From Chthoniobacteraceae bacterium (GTDB taxonomy: Bacteria > Verrucomicrobiota > Verrucomicrobiia > Chthoniobacterales > Chthoniobacteraceae), in NCBI GenBank assembly GCA_031409335.1, contig JANNWY010000214.1:1-64000 (forward strand): a stretch of 64,000 nucleotides of DNA, given 5' to 3'. How positions within the stretch are numbered: position 1 is the stretch's first letter; each line of letters opens with the position of its first letter. A program made the position numbers and the translations under genes. Under the pieces are notes generated by a model that saw only the letters and a program-made list of their open reading frames with translations, was not told where the DNA came from and searched no databases. Of the stretch, positions 43,430 through 57,616 are shown in pieces.

Positions 43430-46400
43430 TCAGGCACGACGCCGACGTCCGAGCAGCCCGAGCGCCCCGAGCGCGAGCAGGCCAAGCGCACCGGGCTCCG
43501 GCACCGCCGCGGCACCCGCCACAAAGTCCGCTGCCGCCGCGCCAAAGTTGGCCTCGGCAAACGCGGGCGCGGGGGGCGCGGCGTGCGGTGGCAATTCCAG
43601 TGTCACCACGACGCCATCGGCAATCGCCAGCGAACCAATGGTCTGGCTTGCGCCGAAGTTTAGCGTGGCATTCGCGATGACGGCCGCGGTTCCATTGGTA
43701 AAGGAGCCGTCGATGTTCGTCTTACCGCCGGTGGCCGTGAGGGCGCTGTAATTCTGCGGGCCACTCAGGGTCTGGATGCCGGTGCCGACCTTTTCGATCG
43801 CCAGCGTCCCCGCGCCGTTTTCGATGAGCCCATCAAAGTCGCCGCTGCCATTGCCATTGCCGACCGTCAGCTTGCTGGCTCCCGCAGTGTCGGTGGTAAT
43901 TCTTCGCGAGGTGTTTGGCGTGGCGTTCCCACCGGTGTTCGGCGCGCCGATCAGTGCGTTCACGGTCTGATTCACCCCGCTTAGAATGAAGGTGCCGACA
44001 TCGTTGTTCACGCCGCCCGCGCCGTTCACGACGGCTTGGCCGATTTGCAGATCGCGATTGATCGCAAGGGCGTTATTGGCGGTGATTTTTACGGTCGTCC
44101 CATTTTGCGTTATCACGTCGCCGATGTCGTTGTTGCTGACATTGAACACCACGGTGCCACCGGCATGGGCAGTGATTCCCCCGCCATTGTTGACGATGGC
44201 TGCGTTCACATTCACCGTCGCCCCCACGCTTGGGTCAAACGTGATGCCGCCGGTCCCGCCGATGCGCTGGATGAGACCGAGGTTCAGCACTCCATTGAAT
44301 GAACCGATGCGGAACCCAGGCGCGCCGGTCAGGATGATGGCTCCGCTGACCGTGTTGCTCCCGGTCTGCGAAGCGATGGCTTTCAGAAACGGTGCCGCGT
44401 CGCCTGTGCCGACGACCGTGAGATTTTCGGCAATCGTGATGCCTCCGCTGAGCAGCACTTGTCCGCCCGTGCTCGTGCTGCCGTCCGAATTGACCTCGGT
44501 GTGGCTGAACGCGCTGCCAAGGGCGGTGTTATTCGCGACCGTGAGGATGCCCGCAGTCACCGTAGTTACTCCGTCAAAGGTGTTCGCGCGATTGAGGGTT
44601 AGGTTGCCGGTGCCCGCTTTTGTCAGGGTGCCCGTGCCGCTGATGATGCCGGCATAGGTCTGATTGGCGGCGATGTTATAGTTGAGCGCCCCATTGTTCA
44701 CGATGCCGGAGCCAGTGATCGAGCCATCATTGAAAACCACGCCATCGCCGAGTTGCAAAGTGCCACTCGCGATGGTCGTCACTCCGGCATAGGTGTTCGC
44801 TTTGGTAAAGACCACGGTGCCGGTGCCGGCATGGGTCACGCTGCCGCTTCCGCCAATGGCACCGCCAAACTCGGTTCCCTGGGAGATGTCGTTCGAGTGG
44901 TTAAAGATCACGGTTCCATTGTTCGTGATGGTGCCGAAGGCGTGGAGCGTCCCAGTCACGCCACCGTCGCCAAGCTGCAGGGTTCCCGAGTTAATGACCG
45001 TCGCGCCGGTATAACTGTTCACCCCAGTCAAAATCGTCGTGCCAGCCCCAGCTTGGGAGAGGCTCACGATGCCGGAACCATTGTCGATGATGTCGGATTG
45101 AATGGTGAGCGCGTTGGCGGAATTCTGGGTAATGATCAGATTGGCATCCGCATTCGGCACCGGCCCGGCGGTCAGCGTGCCATCGCTCACTGCCGCGCCG
45201 ATAGTCAGTGCGCCCGCGCCGCTCTGGATGAGCAAGCCGCCGCTCCCGAGACTCAGGCTTCCACCAGCCGCGGGATCAATGGTAGCGCCGCCCGCGCTGG
45301 CCTCCATTTTCAAGGTATTGATCTGCGTATTCGTCGCACCCAGAGTTACATTGCCCACGGTTCCGCCGTTGATGATGCGGACGTTATTTGCAGCCACATT
45401 GGCTATGGCGCTGACGCCGAGCCGGGTGACATCCGTGTAGCCAGCATAGGCGGTGATGAGTCCGTTCGCAGCGTTGGTGGAATTCACCGCCCAGTCGCTG
45501 CCGCTGACCGTCGCCCACGATCCGAGGATGCCGGTGGCGTCGTTTAACGTGTCGGTGCTCGCGATGCCATTGGCGCTGAAATTCACGCTGCCGCCGGGGT
45601 TCGCGGTGATGGCTCCCATTTGCAAAACAGCCGTGCCTCCGCTTTGGGTGATGGTCGAGGCGCGATTGACCGTCGTCGCGGCGACGATCTCATTGTGGGT
45701 GCCGTCGGTGAGTTCCAAATTACCGCCGCCGAGGATGAGCGGGGCAGTGTCCGAAAGTTTGGTGCTATCGTTGATCGAGTAATCCAGCCGGAGCAGACCA
45801 CCCAGAATCTCGGTGCTCTCGCTGTAGCTGTTCGCTCCCCTCATTGCCACGGTGCCGCCGGTGGCCGTGCCCACGAGTTGATTCGCGTTCGCGTCCGCGA
45901 AGCCATCCAGATTGTTATCCAGGTTCGGGTGATTGCGGAACTGATTGATCGTGATCCGCGTCCGGCTGCCGGCCAGGGCTGCGCTGGGCGTCGCCGTGCC
46001 GAGAGTCTGCACGGTGCTGCCGCTGATGCTGCCGGCAAATTCCACAGTCCCGCCCGTGGCCGAGATCAGCGCGATGTTATGCACCGCCCCGATGACATTC
46101 GTGCCACCGGCTCCGGCTGCGGTTCCGCTCACCGGAACGACCACCGTTCCCGGTGCGATGTTGGCGCTGTAGGTCACGGTGCCGCTCGTGTTCCGTCCGC
46201 CGATTTGGTAGCCATTCAGCGTATTCACGGTGCCCGAGTTTCCGTAGAGCGGCTGATAGGTTGCGGGAGTGACCGTATTGATCGTGGCCGTGGCGATGTT
46301 CGAGTTCGTGCCGCCAGCGGGCGTGAGCGCGCGGTCAAAGCTGGTGCCGGGGTTTGCGAGAAAGAGGCTCCGGGTGGCACCCTCCACGTTCGTGTTGAAC

Positions 46401-47638
46401 ATGTTGCCACCATTGCCATCGGCGAACGAGACGGTCTGCGTCCCGATCGGGCTGGCGACGCCCACGGCACCCACACTACCTTCGATGACGAAGGTGCCAT
46501 TGGTCAGGTTTTGCACGTTCGTATAGGTCCGCGCGACATCCGAGAAGCGATAGGTGCCATTGGTGCGCCCATCTACATTTACCGCGCCGGGCGCTCCCGG
46601 ACCCCAATAGATGGTGCCCTGGGTTCCTGAGCCAGAATTGATCTGGCCGGTGAGATACATCGTCTGCCCCTGCCGTGCGGCGAAGAACTCCATGCGGCGG
46701 CCGTTCGAGCCCATCGTCACGTTGCCGCTTACGGTCAGCGTGTTGTTGTTCAGGCCGCCGGTCCCGTCTCCCGCCATAGAAAATCGCGCCCGCCCCGCGG
46801 TGTTATCGCCCACACCGGTCGAGAAGTCCAAGTTGCGCGCGAAGGTGTAGTTCGTCGTGTCATTGGCAGCTTGCAGACGGAGTTCGGCAGCTATGGTGTT
46901 CTGGAAGTTCAACGCGGCGCTGGAGGTAAGGCTGCTGGCGCTGGTCAGTTGCACGGCATTGGCCGAATTGCCGAGTGCGCCATTCGTGCTCACGAGCACA
47001 TCGCCGCGGTAGATCAGGCCGCCATTGGAGACCACGGTGTCGCCCGTATAGCTGTTGCCCAGGTTGGTAAGATCGAGGAACTGCGTGTCACCAGCCACGA
47101 CAGTCGGCAGGCCCGGTGCAATCATATTGATGCCACCCCCGCCCGAGACCGTGCCGGTGATGCGAATGCCATTGCCATTGGCCAGCCAGGGCAGGCGCAC
47201 GTTTAGCGAATCAGCCAGCGAGACACTGGCGTTGATGATATCAGTGACGTTGGGATTCACCGTCGCCGCGCGGATCAGCGTCGCCGGGCCGCTGTCGGTG
47301 GCATCAAAGGTGAGCGAGCCGCCCGTTCCCGCATTGAGCGTGACGGCGGAAAACGCCGTCGTCGTATCGCCGAGAACCAGCGAACCGACCGTGATCGCCT
47401 GATTCAGATTCACCGTCACCGCGCCCCCGAAATTGACGCCCAGCGTGGCTACGTCGGCCACGCCATTTGGAAACTGTGTCCCGGAAAGCCAGTTCGCCCC
47501 GACATTCCACGAGTAAGTGCCGGCAGTGAGCTGGTTCCAAGTATCGCTGGCTGCGCGAGCCGGGTGCTGGCTGAGCAGCGCGGCGATGCCGGAAGCGAGG
47601 ATGGCCAGAGTGGGACGGAGGGATGGGAGGGTTTTCAT
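43430..47638 (-). CDS. PEP-CTERM protein with autotransporter-associated beta-strand repeats
   Basis: Repeats of G.GT..L...N.Y.G.T.I..GTLQLG; C-terminal VPEPGALGLLALGALGLLGRRRRA; start MKTLPS. Confidence 0.9.
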   Translation of the reverse strand: MKTLPSLRPTLAILASGIAALLSQHPARAASDTWNQLTAGTYSWNVGANWLSGTQFPNGVADVATLGVNFGGAVTVNLNQAITVGSLVLGDTTTAFSAVTLNAGTGGSLTFDATDSGPATLIRAATVNPNVTDIINASVSLADSLNVRLPWLANGNGIRITGTVSGGGGINMIAPGLPTVVAGDTQFLDLTNLGNSYTGDTVVSNGGLIYRGDVLVSTNGALGNSANAVQLTSASSLTSSAALNFQNTIAAELRLQAANDTTNYTFARNLDFSTGVGDNTAGRARFSMAGDGTGGLNNNTLTVSGNVTMGSNGRRMEFFAARQGQTMYLTGQINSGSGTQGTIYWGPGAPGAVNVDGRTNGTYRFSDVARTYTNVQNLTNGTFVIEGSVGAVGVASPIGTQTVSFADGNGGNMFNTNVEGATRSLFLANPGTSFDRALTPAGGTNSNIATATINTVTPATYQPLYGNSGTVNTLNGYQIGGRNTSGTVTYSANIAPGTVVVPVSGTAAGAGGTNVIGAVHNIALISATGGTVEFAGSISGSTVQTLGTATPSAALAGSRTRITINQFRNHPNLDNNLDGFADANANQLVGTATGGTVAMRGANSYSESTEILGGLLRLDYSINDSTKLSDTAPLILGGGNLELTDGTHNEIVAATTVNRASTITQSGGTAVLQMGAITANPGGSVNFSANGIASTDTLNDATGILGSWATVSGSDWAVNSTNAANGLITAYAGYTDVTRLGVSAIANVAANNVRIINGGTVGNVTLGATNTQINTLKMEASAGGATIDPAAGGSLSLGSGGLLIQSGAGALTIGAAVSDGTLTAGPVPNADANLIITQNSANALTIQSDIIDNGSGIVSLSQAGAGTTILTGVNSYTGATVINSGTLQLGDGGVTGTLHAFGTITNNGTVIFNHSNDISQGTEFGGAIGGSGSVTHAGTGTVVFTKANTYAGVTTIASGTLQLGDGVVFNDGSITGSGIVNNGALNYNIAANQTYAGIISGTGTLTKAGTGNLTLNRANTFDGVTTVTAGILTVANNTALGSAFSHTEVNSDGSTSTGGQVLLSGGITIAENLTVVGTGDAAPFLKAIASQTGSNTVSGAIILTGAPGFRIGSFNGVLNLGLIQRIGGTGGITFDPSVGATVNVNAAIVNNGGGITAHAGGTVVFNVSNNDIGDVITQNGTTVKITANNALAINRDLQIGQAVVNGAGGVNNDVGTFILSGVNQTVNALIGAPNTGGNATPNTSRRITTDTAGASKLTVGNGNGSGDFDGLIENGAGTLAIEKVGTGIQTLSGPQNYSALTATGGKTNIDGSFTNGTAAVIANATLNFGASQTIGSLAIADGVVVTLELPPHAAPPAPAFAEANFGAAAADFVAGAAAVPEPGALGLLALGALGLLGRRRRA

Positions 47639-47883
47639 ATTGGGCGGGTAACTTGAGGCTATTGTCGTGAAACCTGCGGCGCAAGCCTGCGACATGGCGC
47701 GTGAAATCCGCGGGGTCCCCGCGGGCGCGTTCAAATTTATGCACTCCTCGGAGGACGGGGTTCCTGCCGCGTCGATCGCCATTGGAAAGCCATTGGAAAC
47801 TCTTGCAGGATTTCGCTGCCTGAGCTTGCGAATTGAACGCGCGGGAACAAACTGCGCTCTCACGCTTCCAATCATCAATCACT

Positions 47884-50000: not shown

Positions 50001-50664
50001 AACTCGTGCCCAAGCTCCAGCTTGGGCACGCCCTTGTCCCCGAAGCTCCGCTTCGCCGCCGCACGCTACCTCCACGGATCGCACCGCAGCATCGGCTGCG
50101 CGCCCGGCATCCACTCGTGCGCCGACGAGTAGCGCCAATGCTCCGGCGCACTGACCCAGCCGCGCTTCACCGGATTCTGGTGTAGATACGCCCGCTTTTG
50201 CTCCATCATCTCATCGTGCAGGATGCGCTGCGGATGCGATCCCTCCTGCCAGAGCTGATATTCGTTCGGTTTGTGCGCGGCCCGGAAATGCCGGAGCTGA
50301 TTGAGCAACCATTCGCGGCGTTCGACCTTGATCTGCTGGGCGAGTTGTTGGGCGGTGAAGCTCTTCAGATCGCGCAGGACGGCGGAGAGATCGGGCGCGG
50401 CGAGGATCGCGTGGAGATGATGGTCGAGGATGACCCATGCATGGATGGCCAGCCCTTTGTGCTCGCGGCCGTATTCCAGCGATCGCACCACGATGTCGCA
50501 GCACGCCGTGGAGGTGAAGACGGGCAGCCATTCGACCACGGTGGCGGTGACAAAGTATCCGCAGTCTGACTCGCGAGCATGGTAGCGGCTGCGCATCCAC
50601 CGAGCGTGGCGAAGCAGAGCTTCGGGGACAAGCGCGTTCCCAAGCTGGAGCTTGGGAACGAGTT
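50001..50664. mobile_element. RAYT locus flanked by 57-bp inverted palindromic repeats
   Basis: 50001-50057 and 50608-50664 match 53/57 as inverted repeats and bracket the transposase. Confidence 0.85.
50066..50596 (-). CDS. REP-associated tyrosine transposase (Y1 HUH)
   Basis: YFVT, AWVILDHHLHAI (HUH), LWQEGSH, YLHQNPVKRG, WRYSSA; start MRSRY. Confidence 0.92.
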   Translation of the reverse strand: MRSRYHARESDCGYFVTATVVEWLPVFTSTACCDIVVRSLEYGREHKGLAIHAWVILDHHLHAILAAPDLSAVLRDLKSFTAQQLAQQIKVERREWLLNQLRHFRAAHKPNEYQLWQEGSHPQRILHDEMMEQKRAYLHQNPVKRGWVSAPEHWRYSSAHEWMPGAQPMLRCDPWR

Positions 50665-50835: not shown

Positions 50836-51399
50836 ATGTCCACTAAAGGCGCGATTAAATGGCTTGCTCGACTTCGCGAGCCGCGAACCATTGAATCCCT
50901 TATCTCGGAAATTTACGGCGAGGCGGCGTGGTATGGCTGTCTCTTCGAGGGAGAGGTAGCCGACCTCCTCAACTTCGCCGACCTCTCACACAAGCCGCTC
51001 GAAGCGATGATGAGGGAGCCATTCAACACTGAAGACTGGTCACTCAGCCAACTACTCAAAGAGTTGGCGAAGCGTGACCTTCCCGAAGATCACTTAACGA
51101 TGCTTCGGGACGGCAAAGACGCCCGAAACGAACTCGTGCATCGTCTCATTGCTACACGCTGCGTGGCTTCGAGAGCTGACAAGGAGCTTTTTCTTGCACA
51201 AATTGACGCACTCTACTTCCGCGTTTGGCGTGCTTACCAATTCGTTCGCGATCTCAAACAGCAATATGCAGCCAAGATTGGTGTGACTGATGAACGCATC
51301 AATGAAATCCTCCGTCAGAAGCGTGAAGAGGCCGAAATGGAGGACCACAACCTCAAACATTTGCTCGGAGAAGACCCCGATGACCGAAGCGCCTCCTGA
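50836..51399 (+). CDS. Hypothetical helical protein (accessory, lower GC)
   Basis: 187 aa ORF; RNELVH resembles an RxxxxH HEPN-type motif. Confidence 0.65.
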   Translation: MSTKGAIKWLARLREPRTIESLISEIYGEAAWYGCLFEGEVADLLNFADLSHKPLEAMMREPFNTEDWSLSQLLKELAKRDLPEDHLTMLRDGKDARNELVHRLIATRCVASRADKELFLAQIDALYFRVWRAYQFVRDLKQQYAAKIGVTDERINEILRQKREEAEMEDHNLKHLLGEDPDDRSAS

Positions 51400-51480: not shown

Positions 51481-51768
51481 ATGGAGAAAAGGACCAAAAT
51501 TCAGAATCACTTCGACAATCCCAATCCCAATCTTCACCCCCAAAAAGATCTGCCGGGCGAAATCGAAATGATAGCGGCCAGAGACCAACGCGAAGCAGGG
51601 GCTCGGCAACAGGCAGAGGAGCGTAAGCACGTCTTCAATTACATTCGGGAGCATCCAGGCTGCACAATTACCGCGATTGCACAAAACGTCGGACGGGCCG
51701 GCCTGAAGGAATGGCTTCGCGATGGCTTCGTCATCAAGCGCGGCAGCGGCCACTACGTTGCCAAATAA
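51481..51768 (+). CDS. Small hypothetical protein with winged-HTH-like C-terminus
   Basis: VFNYIREHPGCTITAIAQNVG. Confidence 0.5.
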   Translation: MEKRTKIQNHFDNPNPNLHPQKDLPGEIEMIAARDQREAGARQQAEERKHVFNYIREHPGCTITAIAQNVGRAGLKEWLRDGFVIKRGSGHYVAK

Positions 51769-53411: not shown

Positions 53412-53561
53412 ATGGCCCTGAGAGATCCCCCAGACTTTTCCACCCGATGCAGCGTCGGCGGTAAACGGAAACCGCCACCTCCTCCTGCCAAGAAAGCCGC
53501 GGCGAAACCCCGGGCAGTCAAAGCGGCGCGGACGAGGAAGGCCCCGGCGCGAAGGAAATAA
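53412..53561 (+). CDS. Small basic peptide (49 aa)
   Basis: Below track cutoff: MALRDPPDFSTRCSVGGKRKPPPPPAKKAAAKPRAVKAARTRKAPARRK. Confidence 0.5.
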   Translation: MALRDPPDFSTRCSVGGKRKPPPPPAKKAAAKPRAVKAARTRKAPARRK

Positions 53562-53615
53562 CCCCTTTTCACTCTTTTCACCCGCGCGGAAAACAGCACC
53601 CCACTATCACCAACC

Positions 53616-56456
53616 ATGCCGATCATTACCTGCACCCCGAGGATCATGACGCCGGAACGGGAAGCACTGGCCCGGCGGCGCAGTATCGAAATCAACCCTG
53701 CCAATGCCGATCTCGTGCGGGAAGTGGAACGCGATGCGGGCGGACGCCGCGGCGGGCGGCGGCTGGCGCTGCTCGTTGGGAATCGCTGGCCGGAGGCGGG
53801 CGTGCGGCTCTCCGTGCAGTTTCTCGACAAGCCCTCCAAGGAACTCCGCCAGCGTCTCCTGCTGCACATGAATGCGTGGGACAAGACGGCGAACATCCGC
53901 TTCGTCGAGACGAAAGGCACGGGGCATGTCCGCCTCGCGCGTTCGGACGATCCCGATTTGGGAGGCTATTGGTCGTGGGTCGGCACCGAGATCCTCGCGG
54001 TCGAGCACGAAGACGAGCCCACGATGAATCTGGAAGGCTTCACCATGAAAACGCCGGATGAGGAATTTCACCGCGTGGTGCGCCACGAGGCCGGGCACAC
54101 GCTGGGTTTTGACCACGAGCACATGCGCGCGGAGCTGGTGAAAAAGATCGACGTGAAAAAAGCGATCGTTCACTTCCGCCACACCGACGGCTGGAGCGCG
54201 GAGGAGACGCGCGCGCAAGTGCTCACGCCGCTGAGGGCCAAGTCCATCATGGGCACGACTGAGGCCGATCCGACCTCGATCATGTGTTATCAAATCCCCG
54301 GCGAGATCACGAAGGATGGCCGGCCGATCCCCGGCGGGCTCGACATCAATGAAAAGGATTTCGCCTTTGCCGCGAAAGTCTATCCCAAGACGGGAAAAGA
54401 GCCGCCGCCTCCGCCCAAAGCGAAAGCCGCAGCCGGCGAGACTGCCACGCAGAGCACGGCGAACAAGGAGTACAAGAATGAGGCCAGCGAAAGCGTCGAG
54501 CCGCCCGTCGCCCCGCGCAGCCAGTCGCTGGGTCTGGAGGAAGCGGACACCTTTCAAATCCTCGTCATGGATGACTTCGATCCCGAGGACATCCGATCGA
54601 GTCTCGCCGATTGCCAGGAAAAGGTTGCGCTCGCTTCCGTCGGCGGCACGGCAAAGCCCGAGCCCGGCCAGCTTCCGCCGAAAAAGCCGAAGCCGAAGTA
54701 TGCGCGCGTTTTTGCCAGCTACGGCGGAGCGCGTGTCTCGTGCGCCATGCGTCTGCGCGCGGACAAGGGCGAGGAGCCCACGCCTTTCGGCAAAATCATC
54801 CGCGTCCACGAGCAGATCAAAAACTACACCGACCGCGAAAAGGGCAGCCTGCCGGATGATGATGAGATGATGAAATTTGGGACGAACCTTTTCGACGCGC
54901 TCTTCCCCGGCGTCGTCGGACGGCTCTACGACGAAGCGCGCTCGCGCCAGCGCCACCGCAAGCTCGATCTCGTCTTCACCTCCATGATCCCGTGGATCGC
55001 CGAAAAGCCTTGGGAATTTGCCTACGACAAAGTGCGCAACAGCTTCCTCGCCACCGAGGAAATCCACCTGATCCGCAATGTGCTGACGGCCGTGCCCGCC
55101 AATGTCATCCCACCGCTCAGCGGCCCTCTGCGCATCCTCGTGGCGTCGGCGCAGCCGGTGGGCTTTGGCCGACTCTCCATCACGCAGGAGGAAACGGTCA
55201 TCCGTCGCGGATTCCAGCCGCTCATCGACGCGGGCTCCGTCGTCGTCAAAGTCCTGCCGCACGCCACGCCCGGCCTCATCCACGGCGAACTGGCGACGGG
55301 GAATTACAACATCATCCACTTCATCGGACACGGCGTGTACGACGAGGGGAAAAAGGAGGGAATGCTCATCTTTGAAAATGAGCGCGGCGATGAATACCCG
55401 CTCGGCGAACGCTCCGTGCGCGAGATCTTCTGCCAGCGCGGCGTGAGCCTCGTCTTCCTGAATGCCTGCCAGACGGGCGCGGGCGGACGGGCGGATTTTA
55501 ACAAAGGCGTCGCGCAATCCCTCGTCGCGCACGGTCTGCCCGCGCTCGTGGCGAATCAATACAGCGTGCTGGATTCCTCGGCCACGTCGTTCGCCCAATT
55601 CTTCTACTGGGCGCTCGCGCAAGGCATGAGCCTCGGCCAGGCCGCGCGCGAGGCCCGCATCGCCGTGAACTATTCCCTGACCGGCGATCCCATCGACTGG
55701 GCCGTCCCCGTCGTTTATGCCCGCGAACCGAATAAATCCCTCTGCGCCAAACCGGAAACCGTCGATCCCATTCCCGCCACCGCCGTGCGCCAAACTCTCC
55801 GCCACGCGCTGCGCGACCGGCGGACGCGCGTCGCCTTTTGGGATATTGATAACGTCTTCCCGGCGCTCGAAGGCACGCTCGCCACGATGAATGAAGCGCA
55901 GTCCGAATTCGGCTTCGAGCTGGCCGCCCTCTCCGCGCCCGTGGACGCGTGGGACTTGGAAAACAAATCGCCCGACGGCTCACCGTACCTCTGGGCCAAC
56001 AAAGTCGCCGAACGCCTGAAGCGGACCACAATCGATCTCCGCGTGGACATCCTAGCCTGCATCACCCGGCACTGGATGTGCAACGATGACTCCATAAATA
56101 TTTACGGCTGGTGGGCCGATCATCAGGAAACGCCCGTCGTCATGTTTTCCGCCGCCGGGCTCGATGACCTGGAGCCGGAGGGAAGCCAGACCGACCGGCT
56201 GCTGGCCAATGTGCTCGTGTTGCTGCTCGCTGGATATTTCAGCGAGATGGATTGCCACGATAAAAAGCGGGAAACGGAGTGCCCGCTCTTCCGAAATGCC
56301 GACCGCGACTTCGGGCACATGACGGGGCCGCAGCAGTTCGACAAAATCTGCCGCGCGAAATTGCGGACGAAAATTCCCAAACTACTCCCCGCCCTCGAAA
56401 CCCTCCTGCAAACTTTTCAACCACCGCAACTCGCAAACCGGAAAACCAAGCCATGA
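53616..56456 (+). CDS. Astacin-like (M12) zinc metalloprotease / CHAT caspase-like protease fusion
   Basis: HEAGHTLGFDH plus Met-turn SIMCY; PWE, LRILV, HFIGHG and LVFLNACQT (His-Cys dyad), DWAVPVVY; no signal peptide. Confidence 0.9.
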   Translation: MPIITCTPRIMTPEREALARRRSIEINPANADLVREVERDAGGRRGGRRLALLVGNRWPEAGVRLSVQFLDKPSKELRQRLLLHMNAWDKTANIRFVETKGTGHVRLARSDDPDLGGYWSWVGTEILAVEHEDEPTMNLEGFTMKTPDEEFHRVVRHEAGHTLGFDHEHMRAELVKKIDVKKAIVHFRHTDGWSAEETRAQVLTPLRAKSIMGTTEADPTSIMCYQIPGEITKDGRPIPGGLDINEKDFAFAAKVYPKTGKEPPPPPKAKAAAGETATQSTANKEYKNEASESVEPPVAPRSQSLGLEEADTFQILVMDDFDPEDIRSSLADCQEKVALASVGGTAKPEPGQLPPKKPKPKYARVFASYGGARVSCAMRLRADKGEEPTPFGKIIRVHEQIKNYTDREKGSLPDDDEMMKFGTNLFDALFPGVVGRLYDEARSRQRHRKLDLVFTSMIPWIAEKPWEFAYDKVRNSFLATEEIHLIRNVLTAVPANVIPPLSGPLRILVASAQPVGFGRLSITQEETVIRRGFQPLIDAGSVVVKVLPHATPGLIHGELATGNYNIIHFIGHGVYDEGKKEGMLIFENERGDEYPLGERSVREIFCQRGVSLVFLNACQTGAGGRADFNKGVAQSLVAHGLPALVANQYSVLDSSATSFAQFFYWALAQGMSLGQAAREARIAVNYSLTGDPIDWAVPVVYAREPNKSLCAKPETVDPIPATAVRQTLRHALRDRRTRVAFWDIDNVFPALEGTLATMNEAQSEFGFELAALSAPVDAWDLENKSPDGSPYLWANKVAERLKRTTIDLRVDILACITRHWMCNDDSINIYGWWADHQETPVVMFSAAGLDDLEPEGSQTDRLLANVLVLLLAGYFSEMDCHDKKRETECPLFRNADRDFGHMTGPQQFDKICRAKLRTKIPKLLPALETLLQTFQPPQLANRKTKP

Positions 56457-57616
56457 CTCAGCCCAAAAAAATAAAATCCGCTCGCAAAAATTCCCCGAAA
56501 CCCGCTGCCAAAGCCGCGCCCCGAAAAAAATCCCCCACGCGCGCTGCCCGTGCCACCGCTCCCGCTGGCGAAAGCCCCGTCACCCTCGAGCAAGCCCGCG
56601 CCCTCGTCCGCGCCCGCGCCCCGAAGCGCGCCTTGCGCGGGCCCGCCGCTACCGCTCCGGCGGCTTCGCCCGAGAGCATTGGGCTCGCCCGCGAACGACT
56701 CGCCGCAGAGCGACGCCGGGAAGATGAGCGGCGCATCCGCGAGTATCAGGCGACGATGGAAATCATGAAACGGCGCGGCGTGAAAGGTCTGGATGCCAAG
56801 GCGGTGAAAGCCGGCAAACGCCGCGCTCCCGGAGCAGGCCGGCCCGCCGCCGCCCCGAAAGCACCCGCCGCACAGCCTCTGCAAATTTTTGCCGAAGGCG
56901 ATTCCTGGTTCGACTACCCTCCCTTCCTCTTCAGCGGCGGCCTCATCCCGCGCCTCGAAAAAAGGCTCGGCGTCCCCATTCTGAATCTCGCCAAGGCCGG
57001 CGATGAAGTCCGCTACATGCTTGGCGTCGAGCAGCGAAGAATCCTCACGCAAAAACTCAGCGATGGTAGTCCCGCCGGCGGCCCGTGGGATGCGCTGCTT
57101 TTCTCCGGCGGAGGAAACGACATCGTCGATAACCCGATGGCGCTTTGGGTCCGGGACTTTGTGCCCGCGAAGCCGGCCAAGGCCCTTATCCATCAAGCGC
57201 GCTACGATTCCGCCCTTGCGCTAGTCCGCGCCGGCTACGAAGACCTCATCACCCTGCGCGACAGCTACAGCCCCGGCACGCGCCTCATCTTCCACGCCTA
57301 CGATTTCGCCATCCCGGATGGACGCGGCGTATGCCACCTCGGCCCGTGGATGAAGCCGACCTTCGACCTGCGCAAATTTCCCGCTGCCTCGTCCCTCCGG
57401 TTTGAAGTCGTAAAGGAAATGCTGAAACAATTCGCTGCCCTCATGCTGTCGCTGGAAAGCCATTCGCGCGTGACCTTCATCAACGGCCAGGGAACCCTCA
57501 CGCCGGGTCCCGGCTCGTGGCACAACGAATTGCACCCCACGAAAGATGGCTTCGACCTGTTCGCCGACCTCTTTCACAAAAAATTGCAGGCGCTCTTTCC
57601 AACCCGCGTGCTTTGA
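56453..57616 (+). CDS. SGNH/GDSL-family hydrolase with long basic N-terminal extension
   Basis: AEGDSW, SGGGND, NELHPT; ATGA overlap with the protease gene; start MTQPKK. Confidence 0.87.
   Translation: MTQPKKIKSARKNSPKPAAKAAPRKKSPTRAARATAPAGESPVTLEQARALVRARAPKRALRGPAATAPAASPESIGLARERLAAERRREDERRIREYQATMEIMKRRGVKGLDAKAVKAGKRRAPGAGRPAAAPKAPAAQPLQIFAEGDSWFDYPPFLFSGGLIPRLEKRLGVPILNLAKAGDEVRYMLGVEQRRILTQKLSDGSPAGGPWDALLFSGGGNDIVDNPMALWVRDFVPAKPAKALIHQARYDSALALVRAGYEDLITLRDSYSPGTRLIFHAYDFAIPDGRGVCHLGPWMKPTFDLRKFPAASSLRFEVVKEMLKQFAALMLSLESHSRVTFINGQGTLTPGPGSWHNELHPTKDGFDLFADLFHKKLQALFPTRVL

Follow-up and report, generated by a model that had tools for sequence, protein, structure and literature searches.

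Work of 2025 established protease-gated effectors as a main logic of bacterial immunity; those tested were nucleases, pores and one alpha/beta hydrolase, most of them placed under NTPase or nucleotide sensors. In one of the closest described systems, a caspase-like protease of Lysobacter cleaves its alpha/beta hydrolase at R-G and the fragments kill (LcCaspase/LcHydrolase, PMC12642450), and a module of caspase and alpha/beta hydrolase was predicted in PMC7159879. Among metallopeptidases, myroilysin is regulated by a cysteine switch (PMC9848320). Here, a stretch of 64,000 nucleotides (nt) from a Chthoniobacteraceae bacterium (assembly GCA_031409335.1, contig JANNWY010000214.1, positions 1 to 64,000 of the forward strand; the window) was analysed for a two-gene module, in which a 946-aa protein with an M12 metallopeptidase domain, a CHAT protease domain and a dead archaemetzincin-like C-terminal domain (CTD) is followed by an SGNH hydrolase with a basic N-terminal extension. 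Chances are about even that the pair is a cytoplasmic protease-gated ester-hydrolase module, probably with a role in biological conflict (against phages, or in a comparable form of cell death or dormancy).

The first-pass annotation, made from the letters of the window, had described a 946-aa protein with intact metzincin and caspase-like sites, and the motifs were found where it had placed them: HEAGHTLGFDH at residues 157–167, SIMCY at 221–225, HFIGHG at 568–573 (His572) and LNAC at 615–618 (Cys618). Pfam matched Astacin at 66–212 (E 2e-5) and CHAT at 421–699 (E 8e-32). Homologues of the protease were obtained as 808 matches among 8,000 scored candidates, and the best 120, with identities of 56–100% across 90–99% of the length, were examined. 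The zinc motif HExxHxxGxxH, the Met-turn S[IV]MCY and the CHAT motif LN[AS]C were each present in 120/120 and the CHAT His motif in 113/120; the CHAT His-Cys dyad was invariant in 30/30 aligned homologues. The solved structure nearest to the M12 domain was myroilysin (PDB 5gwd, E 1.6e-29); its alignment starts at residue 48, after a basic GRRG motif carried by 109 of the 120 homologues, and does not reach the myroilysin Cys. The motif around Cys6 was present in 107/120, most of the 13 misses being shorter start calls. By analogy with myroilysin, Cys6 may act as a cysteine switch that keeps the M12 domain latent, as had been suggested at first pass. For the CHAT domain the best PDB match was 8tl0 (SAVED-CHAT) and the PADLOC profile SAVED_CHAT was matched at E 7e-13; its specificity is probably for Arg or Lys, judged from the Lysobacter enzyme (PMC12642450) and from a statement on metacaspases in bioRxiv 10.1101/2023.06.23.546230.

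Both protease domains of the first description thus stood, and a third domain, at residues 728–937, had been missed. Its model (predicted local distance difference test score, pLDDT, 95.8) matched archaemetzincins best (2x7m: Z 16.3, root mean square deviation (rmsd) 3.0 with 172 aligned; the next family reached Z 11.3), and Foldseek matched it to archaemetzincin at E 1e-6. The CTD sequence had no Pfam family and no PDB sequence match, and an Atlas lead of 0.77 pointed to DUF6775/DUF7001 only; the fold search settled the identity. HExxH was found in 0/120 close homologues and in 1/150 distant CTD matches, and because this motif is absent the domain, as modelled, is an archaemetzincin-fold pseudo-peptidase. 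It retains His881, Cys889 and Cys912, and a C-terminal CxxC was present in 36 of the 150 distant matches.

The start of the SGNH gene overlaps the stop of the protease gene, as reported at first pass, and does so by 4 nt. SGNH homologues were obtained as 1,374 matches among 8,000 scored candidates, the best 120 of which were examined. The fold was confirmed by the model (Z 14.3, rmsd 3.4, 189 aligned), the Ser (GDS), Asn (GGND) and His are present and conserved among the homologues, and the Pfam score (32.2) was just below the cut-off (32.9). The canonical acid motif of SGNH block V is D-x-x-H. Block V here reads N-E-L-H in both SGNH subfamilies (A and B), with Asn at the usual Asp position, and Glu359 or a dyad may replace the usual acid. 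The extension, first described as basic and of low complexity, is basic (median net charge +26, median length 135) and is not merely low-complexity: residues 42–108 are conserved and were modelled as two confident helices. The motif [MIL]K.RG was present in the extension of 118/118 SGNH homologues; K-x-R-G is a candidate cleavage site or helix cap. Coordinates are given in the table.

Table. Features of the protease–SGNH locus (positions of the window)
Feature	Position	Strand	Basis or remark
946-aa M12 – linker – CHAT – dead archaemetzincin-like protein	53616..56456	+	ORF (open reading frame) translation, Pfam, homologue search, PDB match, fold search
Predicted prosegment, residues 1–49, with candidate cysteine-switch Cys6 (53631–53633) and basic GRRG site	53616..53762	+	Homologue alignment
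Myroilysin-like M12 metzincin catalytic domain, zinc motif 54084–54116	53763..54389	+	PDB 5gwd, Pfam Astacin
CHAT (clan CD) protease and its N-terminal subdomain, His572 (55329–55331), Cys618 (55467–55469)	54546..55760	+	Pfam, PADLOC
Catalytically dead archaemetzincin-fold domain (CTD), as modelled	55797..56426	+	Model, fold search
SGNH hydrolase of 387 aa and subfamily A, translationally coupled; Ser151 (56903–56905), Asn222, His361 (57533–57535)	56453..57616	+	ORF, Pfam, fold
Basic N-terminal extension of SGNH; conserved helices 45–55 and 73–108; invariant K-x-R-G (56768–56779)	56453..56869	+	Alignment, model
49-aa basic Lys/Pro/Ala-rich ORF	53412..53561	+	Lineage-restricted accessory or remnant

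Linkage of the two genes was surveyed in 185,579 species genomes, which contained 219 relatives; the best 80 were retained and gave 69 loci, 6 of which lay at contig edges and were removed. An adjacent co-oriented SGNH gene was present in 39 of the 63 loci assessed (23 of subfamily A, 16 of subfamily B), including one remnant (L032), three cut by the contig end (L033, L048 and L054) and one frameshifted (L071), and the intergenic gap was at most 30 nt in 27 of the 39 pairs measured. After removal of one duplicate genome, 36/52 M12-type loci, across about eight phyla, carried such an SGNH gene, so that the linkage proposed at first pass proved to be conserved; loci in which DUF7379, an alpha/beta hydrolase, takes the place of M12 in the fusion carried none (0/6; Fisher p 0.002 against the M12 type, overstated by kinship). 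Subfamilies A and B are homologous and only about 30% identical, and B was restricted to one CHAT clade of Acidobacteriota, Gemmatimonadota and Pseudomonadota. Distances were compared by Mantel correlation, in which kin are not independent: for subfamily A (21 loci) r was 0.34 against CHAT-CTD and 0.62 against M12, for subfamily B (13 loci) 0.76 and 0.71. Fast trees, calculated without bootstrap, placed DUF7379 forms both basal and nested, the N-terminal type having changed at least 4 times and the partner at least 2 times. Functional coupling of protease and SGNH is very likely. Evidence on which protease cuts the hydrolase is split, because an M12-SGNH fusion protein exists (P0130; one contig, possible artefact) and because another locus carries CHAT-CTD and SGNH without M12 (L052).

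A second survey was anchored on SGNH and used the best 80 of at least 550 metagenome loci, 32 of which had 1 kb on both sides; the loci were also the source of their own queries, and peptidase counts are given without a background rate. A peptidase gene was found within 1 kb in 18/32 loci (5 M12-CHAT-CTD protein, 6 C25-like, 4 subtilase, 2 M12, 1 trypsin). An arrangement of C25-like peptidase, an unknown 92-aa protein and SGNH-A recurs (L086:8145-11119 and related loci), and the 92-aa protein also precedes SGNH in five loci where the C25-like peptidase was not found. In a family relative, a more distant SGNH belonging to the same family lies directly 3' of a papain-like C1 peptidase (L169:1465-3272). 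Distant SGNH relatives without N-terminal extension were seen in two related genomes (L155 and L156), and no peptidase was recognised in their 1.5 kb flanks.

For the wider family, a CTD profile was searched against 1.84 billion representatives and yielded 346 CTD-bearing proteins. Fifty of the longer ones were scanned: 49 had a CHAT or DUF7379 form, 24 had DUF7379 and only 1 had Astacin. Because of these counts (24/50 against 1/50), lipase-CHAT-CTD is the common form and M12-CHAT-CTD a subclade. Of 44 long CTD-bearing representatives, 27 have the H[SG]RGG motif that marks the DUF7379 form, and Pfam found DUF7379 in all 21 of these 44 that were scanned. Two loci (L016 and L022) have a separate M12 gene directly 5' of DUF7379-CHAT-CTD, an arrangement that hints at how the M12 fusion may have come about. 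Three Acidobacteriota genomes (distant loci L191, L192 and L194) have an operon of CHAT, a stand-alone CTD (dead archaemetzincin-like, no Pfam family) and an LCAT-like hydrolase; with that stand-alone CTD as query, 400 further Acidobacteriota genomes gave no match. One protein of 1685 aa (P0374) combines WD40 repeats, DUF7379 and CTD with a CHAT-like region between, and is a sensor-bearing family member. Because the SGNH, DUF7379 and LCAT-like forms share the core of CHAT and dead zincin, the conserved unit joins a caspase-like protease and a dead zincin to an ester hydrolase that is interchangeable and has either of two folds. The first-pass annotation had recognised the SGNH partner and missed the other ester hydrolases that replace it in relatives.

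In the mechanism proposed, latency, cleavage, substrate, trigger and phenotype are drawn by analogy, on domains, motifs and a linkage that were observed. At rest, M12 would be blocked by the Cys6 prosegment and SGNH kept latent by its helical basic extension. A trigger, for which the dead archaemetzincin domain is a plausible binding site, would license CHAT, which, being probably specific for Arg or Lys, would cleave the prosegment at its basic GRRG site and so free M12; one of the two proteases would then remove the SGNH extension near K106–G109, and the freed SGNH would deacylate membrane lipids or another essential acyl ester. A fuller form, in which a single polypeptide relays a signal from the dead archaemetzincin, as pseudo-protease sensor or trap, to CHAT, to a cysteine-switch metallopeptidase and finally to a lipolytic death effector of exchangeable type (SGNH, DUF7379 or LCAT-like), is rather unlikely.

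Several observations weigh against a protease-gated module in conflict. No sensor was identified at the locus, which is flanked by genes for phosphopentomutase and malate dehydrogenase. K-x-R-G is missing from SGNH subfamily B; in subfamily A it sits at the end of helix 73–108, so that its invariance may reflect a helix cap, a role in which Gly acts. The folds closest to SGNH are mixed esterases, and it is an assumption that the extension covers the active site. Moreover, 16/52 M12-type loci have no adjacent SGNH, and a close SGNH was found elsewhere in only 1 of 25 genomes without an intact one at the locus (possibly incomplete genomes); 14/32 SGNH-anchored loci lack a peptidase in the vicinity, and M12-CHAT-CTD is present in only 5/32. 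These counts also fit a different reading, in which the basic extension serves to anchor a constitutive SGNH to anionic membrane or nucleoid and not to inhibit it, while the genes move as members of a mobile assortment of hydrolases and are not related as enzyme and substrate. SGNH and protease each occurring alone would be expected of it, as would the pairing of SGNH with at least 5 unrelated peptidase types, the similar Lys/Ala-rich N-termini of several neighbour proteins and the weak correlation of CHAT with SGNH-A distances; translational coupling, the mutual exclusion of SGNH and DUF7379, the recruitment of two SGNH subfamilies and the M12-SGNH fusion speak against it, and it is considered quite unlikely.

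Genomic context was examined next to the module and its relatives. The module was found in 1/151 genomes of the family and 1/401 of the phylum; 301 genomes of an Acidobacteriota family gave 6 strong matches, 3 with SGNH, overlapping earlier loci. Isolate genomes that carry it include Bradyrhizobium sp. DOA9 and cir1. The gene pair is thus rare and patchy, in scattered soil and water bacteria, which counts in favour of a role in conflict. G+C content at third codon positions (GC3) was 0.79 for the protease and 0.72 for SGNH against 0.77 for mdh, and because it is host-like there is no sign of recent transfer. Insertion boundaries are undefined, as gene order around deoB and mdh varies among genomes of the same genus; a promoter and terminator scan at the locus gave chance level, and no repeats were tied to the module. 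PADLOC (2023 library) gave a domain-level SAVED_CHAT match only for the pair itself, none for SGNH and no system-level gene set. The PADLOC check that had been suggested at first pass counts against a role in conflict: only 14/147 neighbour proteins of 42 linked loci were matched, mostly by generic domains (kinase, ABC, methyltransferase, subtilase), the specific matches being an LmuA/Avs1a-type metallo-beta-lactamase (MBL), an AbiE pair and PDC-S03, and defence islands are a minority among the neighbourhoods. Sensors of the TPR or NTPase type do not recur with the module, in agreement with the first pass.

An LmuA/Avs1a-type MBL module adjoins 6 related loci, in three arrangements, as part of clusters of patatin, a large gene and MBL in which only the MBL type was confirmed, and this adjacency speaks for a role in conflict; the genome of the window gave no match to an MBL of the neighbouring type. 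One such island (L009:2824-15502, L055 and L057) contains patatin, a large protein with caspase-like motifs, LmuA-type MBL and a C39-like protein, together with the M12-CHAT/SGNH pair and an amidase that carries, as a fusion, an unknown C-terminal domain. The large gene beside MBL was considered as a CHAT protein, and this was unconfirmed (hhalign probability 0.5, no Pfam match, His/Cys motifs by eye only).

HetF has a developmental role, and CHAT might be used here in a comparable way, in regulated proteolysis and deacylation for stress or development, with SGNH processed or co-regulated and not a death effector. The mostly ordinary neighbourhoods, a weak NCBIfam match of the protease to HetF (E 2e-4, far below cut-off) and identities of 56–82% across phyla, judged unusual for arms-race genes, agree with such a role, which is nevertheless unlikely given the great rarity and patchiness of the module among kin, the repeated exchange of the hydrolase and the co-clustering with LmuA/Avs1a-type MBL modules in some lineages. 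Export, or release on lysis, for predation, interbacterial attack or nutrient capture, with the enzymes latent in the producer, is doubtful and considered improbable. The family of myroilysin is described as secreted (PMC9848320) and 10 loci have an amidase-fusion gene as a direct neighbour; on the other side, a hydropathy check (not a signal-peptide predictor) found a hydrophobic N-terminal stretch above cut-off in 1/120 protease and 0/120 SGNH homologues, so that neither family has a hydrophobic leader, in line with the lack of a signal peptide noted at first pass for the 946-aa protein, and no secretion or immunity gene recurs among the adjacent genes.

The small peptide encoded upstream had been counted as a part of the system, and as a core member it was rejected, its carriers being three Verrucomicrobiota genomes of 61. 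SVGG-bearing ORFs lie 46–81 nt upstream only in L005/L064 and L061 (4/62 loci, 3 genomes including that of the window). Because SVGG has a background of only 0.1% (14/14,454 short ORFs of the same genome), the ORF is probably real, though accessory. A role as decoy or inhibitor, considered since SVGG is shared with the CHAT loop of the 946-aa protein, was unsupported; S[AV]GG was present in that loop in 6/120 homologues and missing in the two other peptide-bearing genomes. Elsewhere in the window, a Y1_Tnp gene (50001-50664; IS200-like, weak Pfam E 0.08), which we take to resemble a REP-associated tyrosine transposase, lies between 57-nt inverted repeats with 93% complementarity. Beside it, a lower-GC stretch contains unannotated ORFs of 187 aa (50836-51399) and 95 aa (51481-51768), the latter with a weak CARF3 match only (E 0.05). 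Positions 43430-47878 encode a PEP-CTERM protein of 1482 aa that contains passenger-associated transport repeats and is of a kind typical of Verrucomicrobiota.

For bacterial immunity, the two-gene module offers a new effector fold and a relay of cysteine and metallo protease like that of eukaryotic zymogen cascades, and its conserved pseudo-peptidase is a candidate sensor. The module can be tested directly in the isolate genomes that carry it, and it provides a framework for the DUF7379-CHAT family, which is larger and unstudied. If the one-polypeptide cascade were true, SGNH hydrolases would become a new class of effector under protease control, and the metzincin relay and pseudo-zincin sensor would be new parts of prokaryotic immunity.

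M12-CHAT, CHAT-SGNH and DUF7379 were undescribed in the literature found, which covered few subscription papers; supplements of PMC7159879, PMC12642450 and PMC12799240 may list such loci. SGNH and GDSL did not occur in PMC12642450, nor SGNH in PMC7159879, and a term search of bioRxiv 10.1101/2025.09.30.679545 found neither CHAT nor SGNH. With the module of caspase and alpha/beta hydrolase the locus shares a clan CD protease beside a lipase-like hydrolase and a candidate R-G site, and in CHAT relatives found here an alpha/beta hydrolase (DUF7379, LCAT-like) is either fused to the protease or encoded after it; the effector at the locus itself, however, has the SGNH fold, and the locus has an extra M12 domain bearing its active site as well as a dead zincin, while it lacks a STAND, MoxR/vWA or repeat sensor. 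The canu caspase-nuclease loci (PMC12799240) share with the proposed mechanism the logic of a caspase-gated pro-enzyme without classical NTPase sensor, and MBL modules of the LmuA/Avs1a type adjoin some relatives of the locus; canu has a MALT1-like caspase with Ig fold and a nuclease with internal gates, whereas CHAT and an esterase with N-terminal extension are found here. In the cascade from SAVED-CHAT to PCaspase (bioRxiv 10.1101/2023.06.23.546230; PDB 8tl0) CHAT activates a second protease, as is proposed here, but no SAVED, CRISPR or cyclase is present at the locus and the place of the second protease is taken by a metzincin on the CHAT polypeptide itself. Archaemetzincin AmzA (PDB 2x7m, 3zvs, 3lmc) has the same fold as the CTD (Z 13.9–16.3), in which the catalytic HExxH is missing. 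Myroilysin (M12A; PDB 5gwd) shares homology of the catalytic domain, the zinc motif, the Met-turn and a Cys-bearing prosegment, whereas the M12 domain here has no signal peptide, is fused to CHAT and has a putative cysteine switch. The module is probably a variant, so far undescribed, of the self-destruct switches, triggered by proteases, with which bacteria counter viruses.

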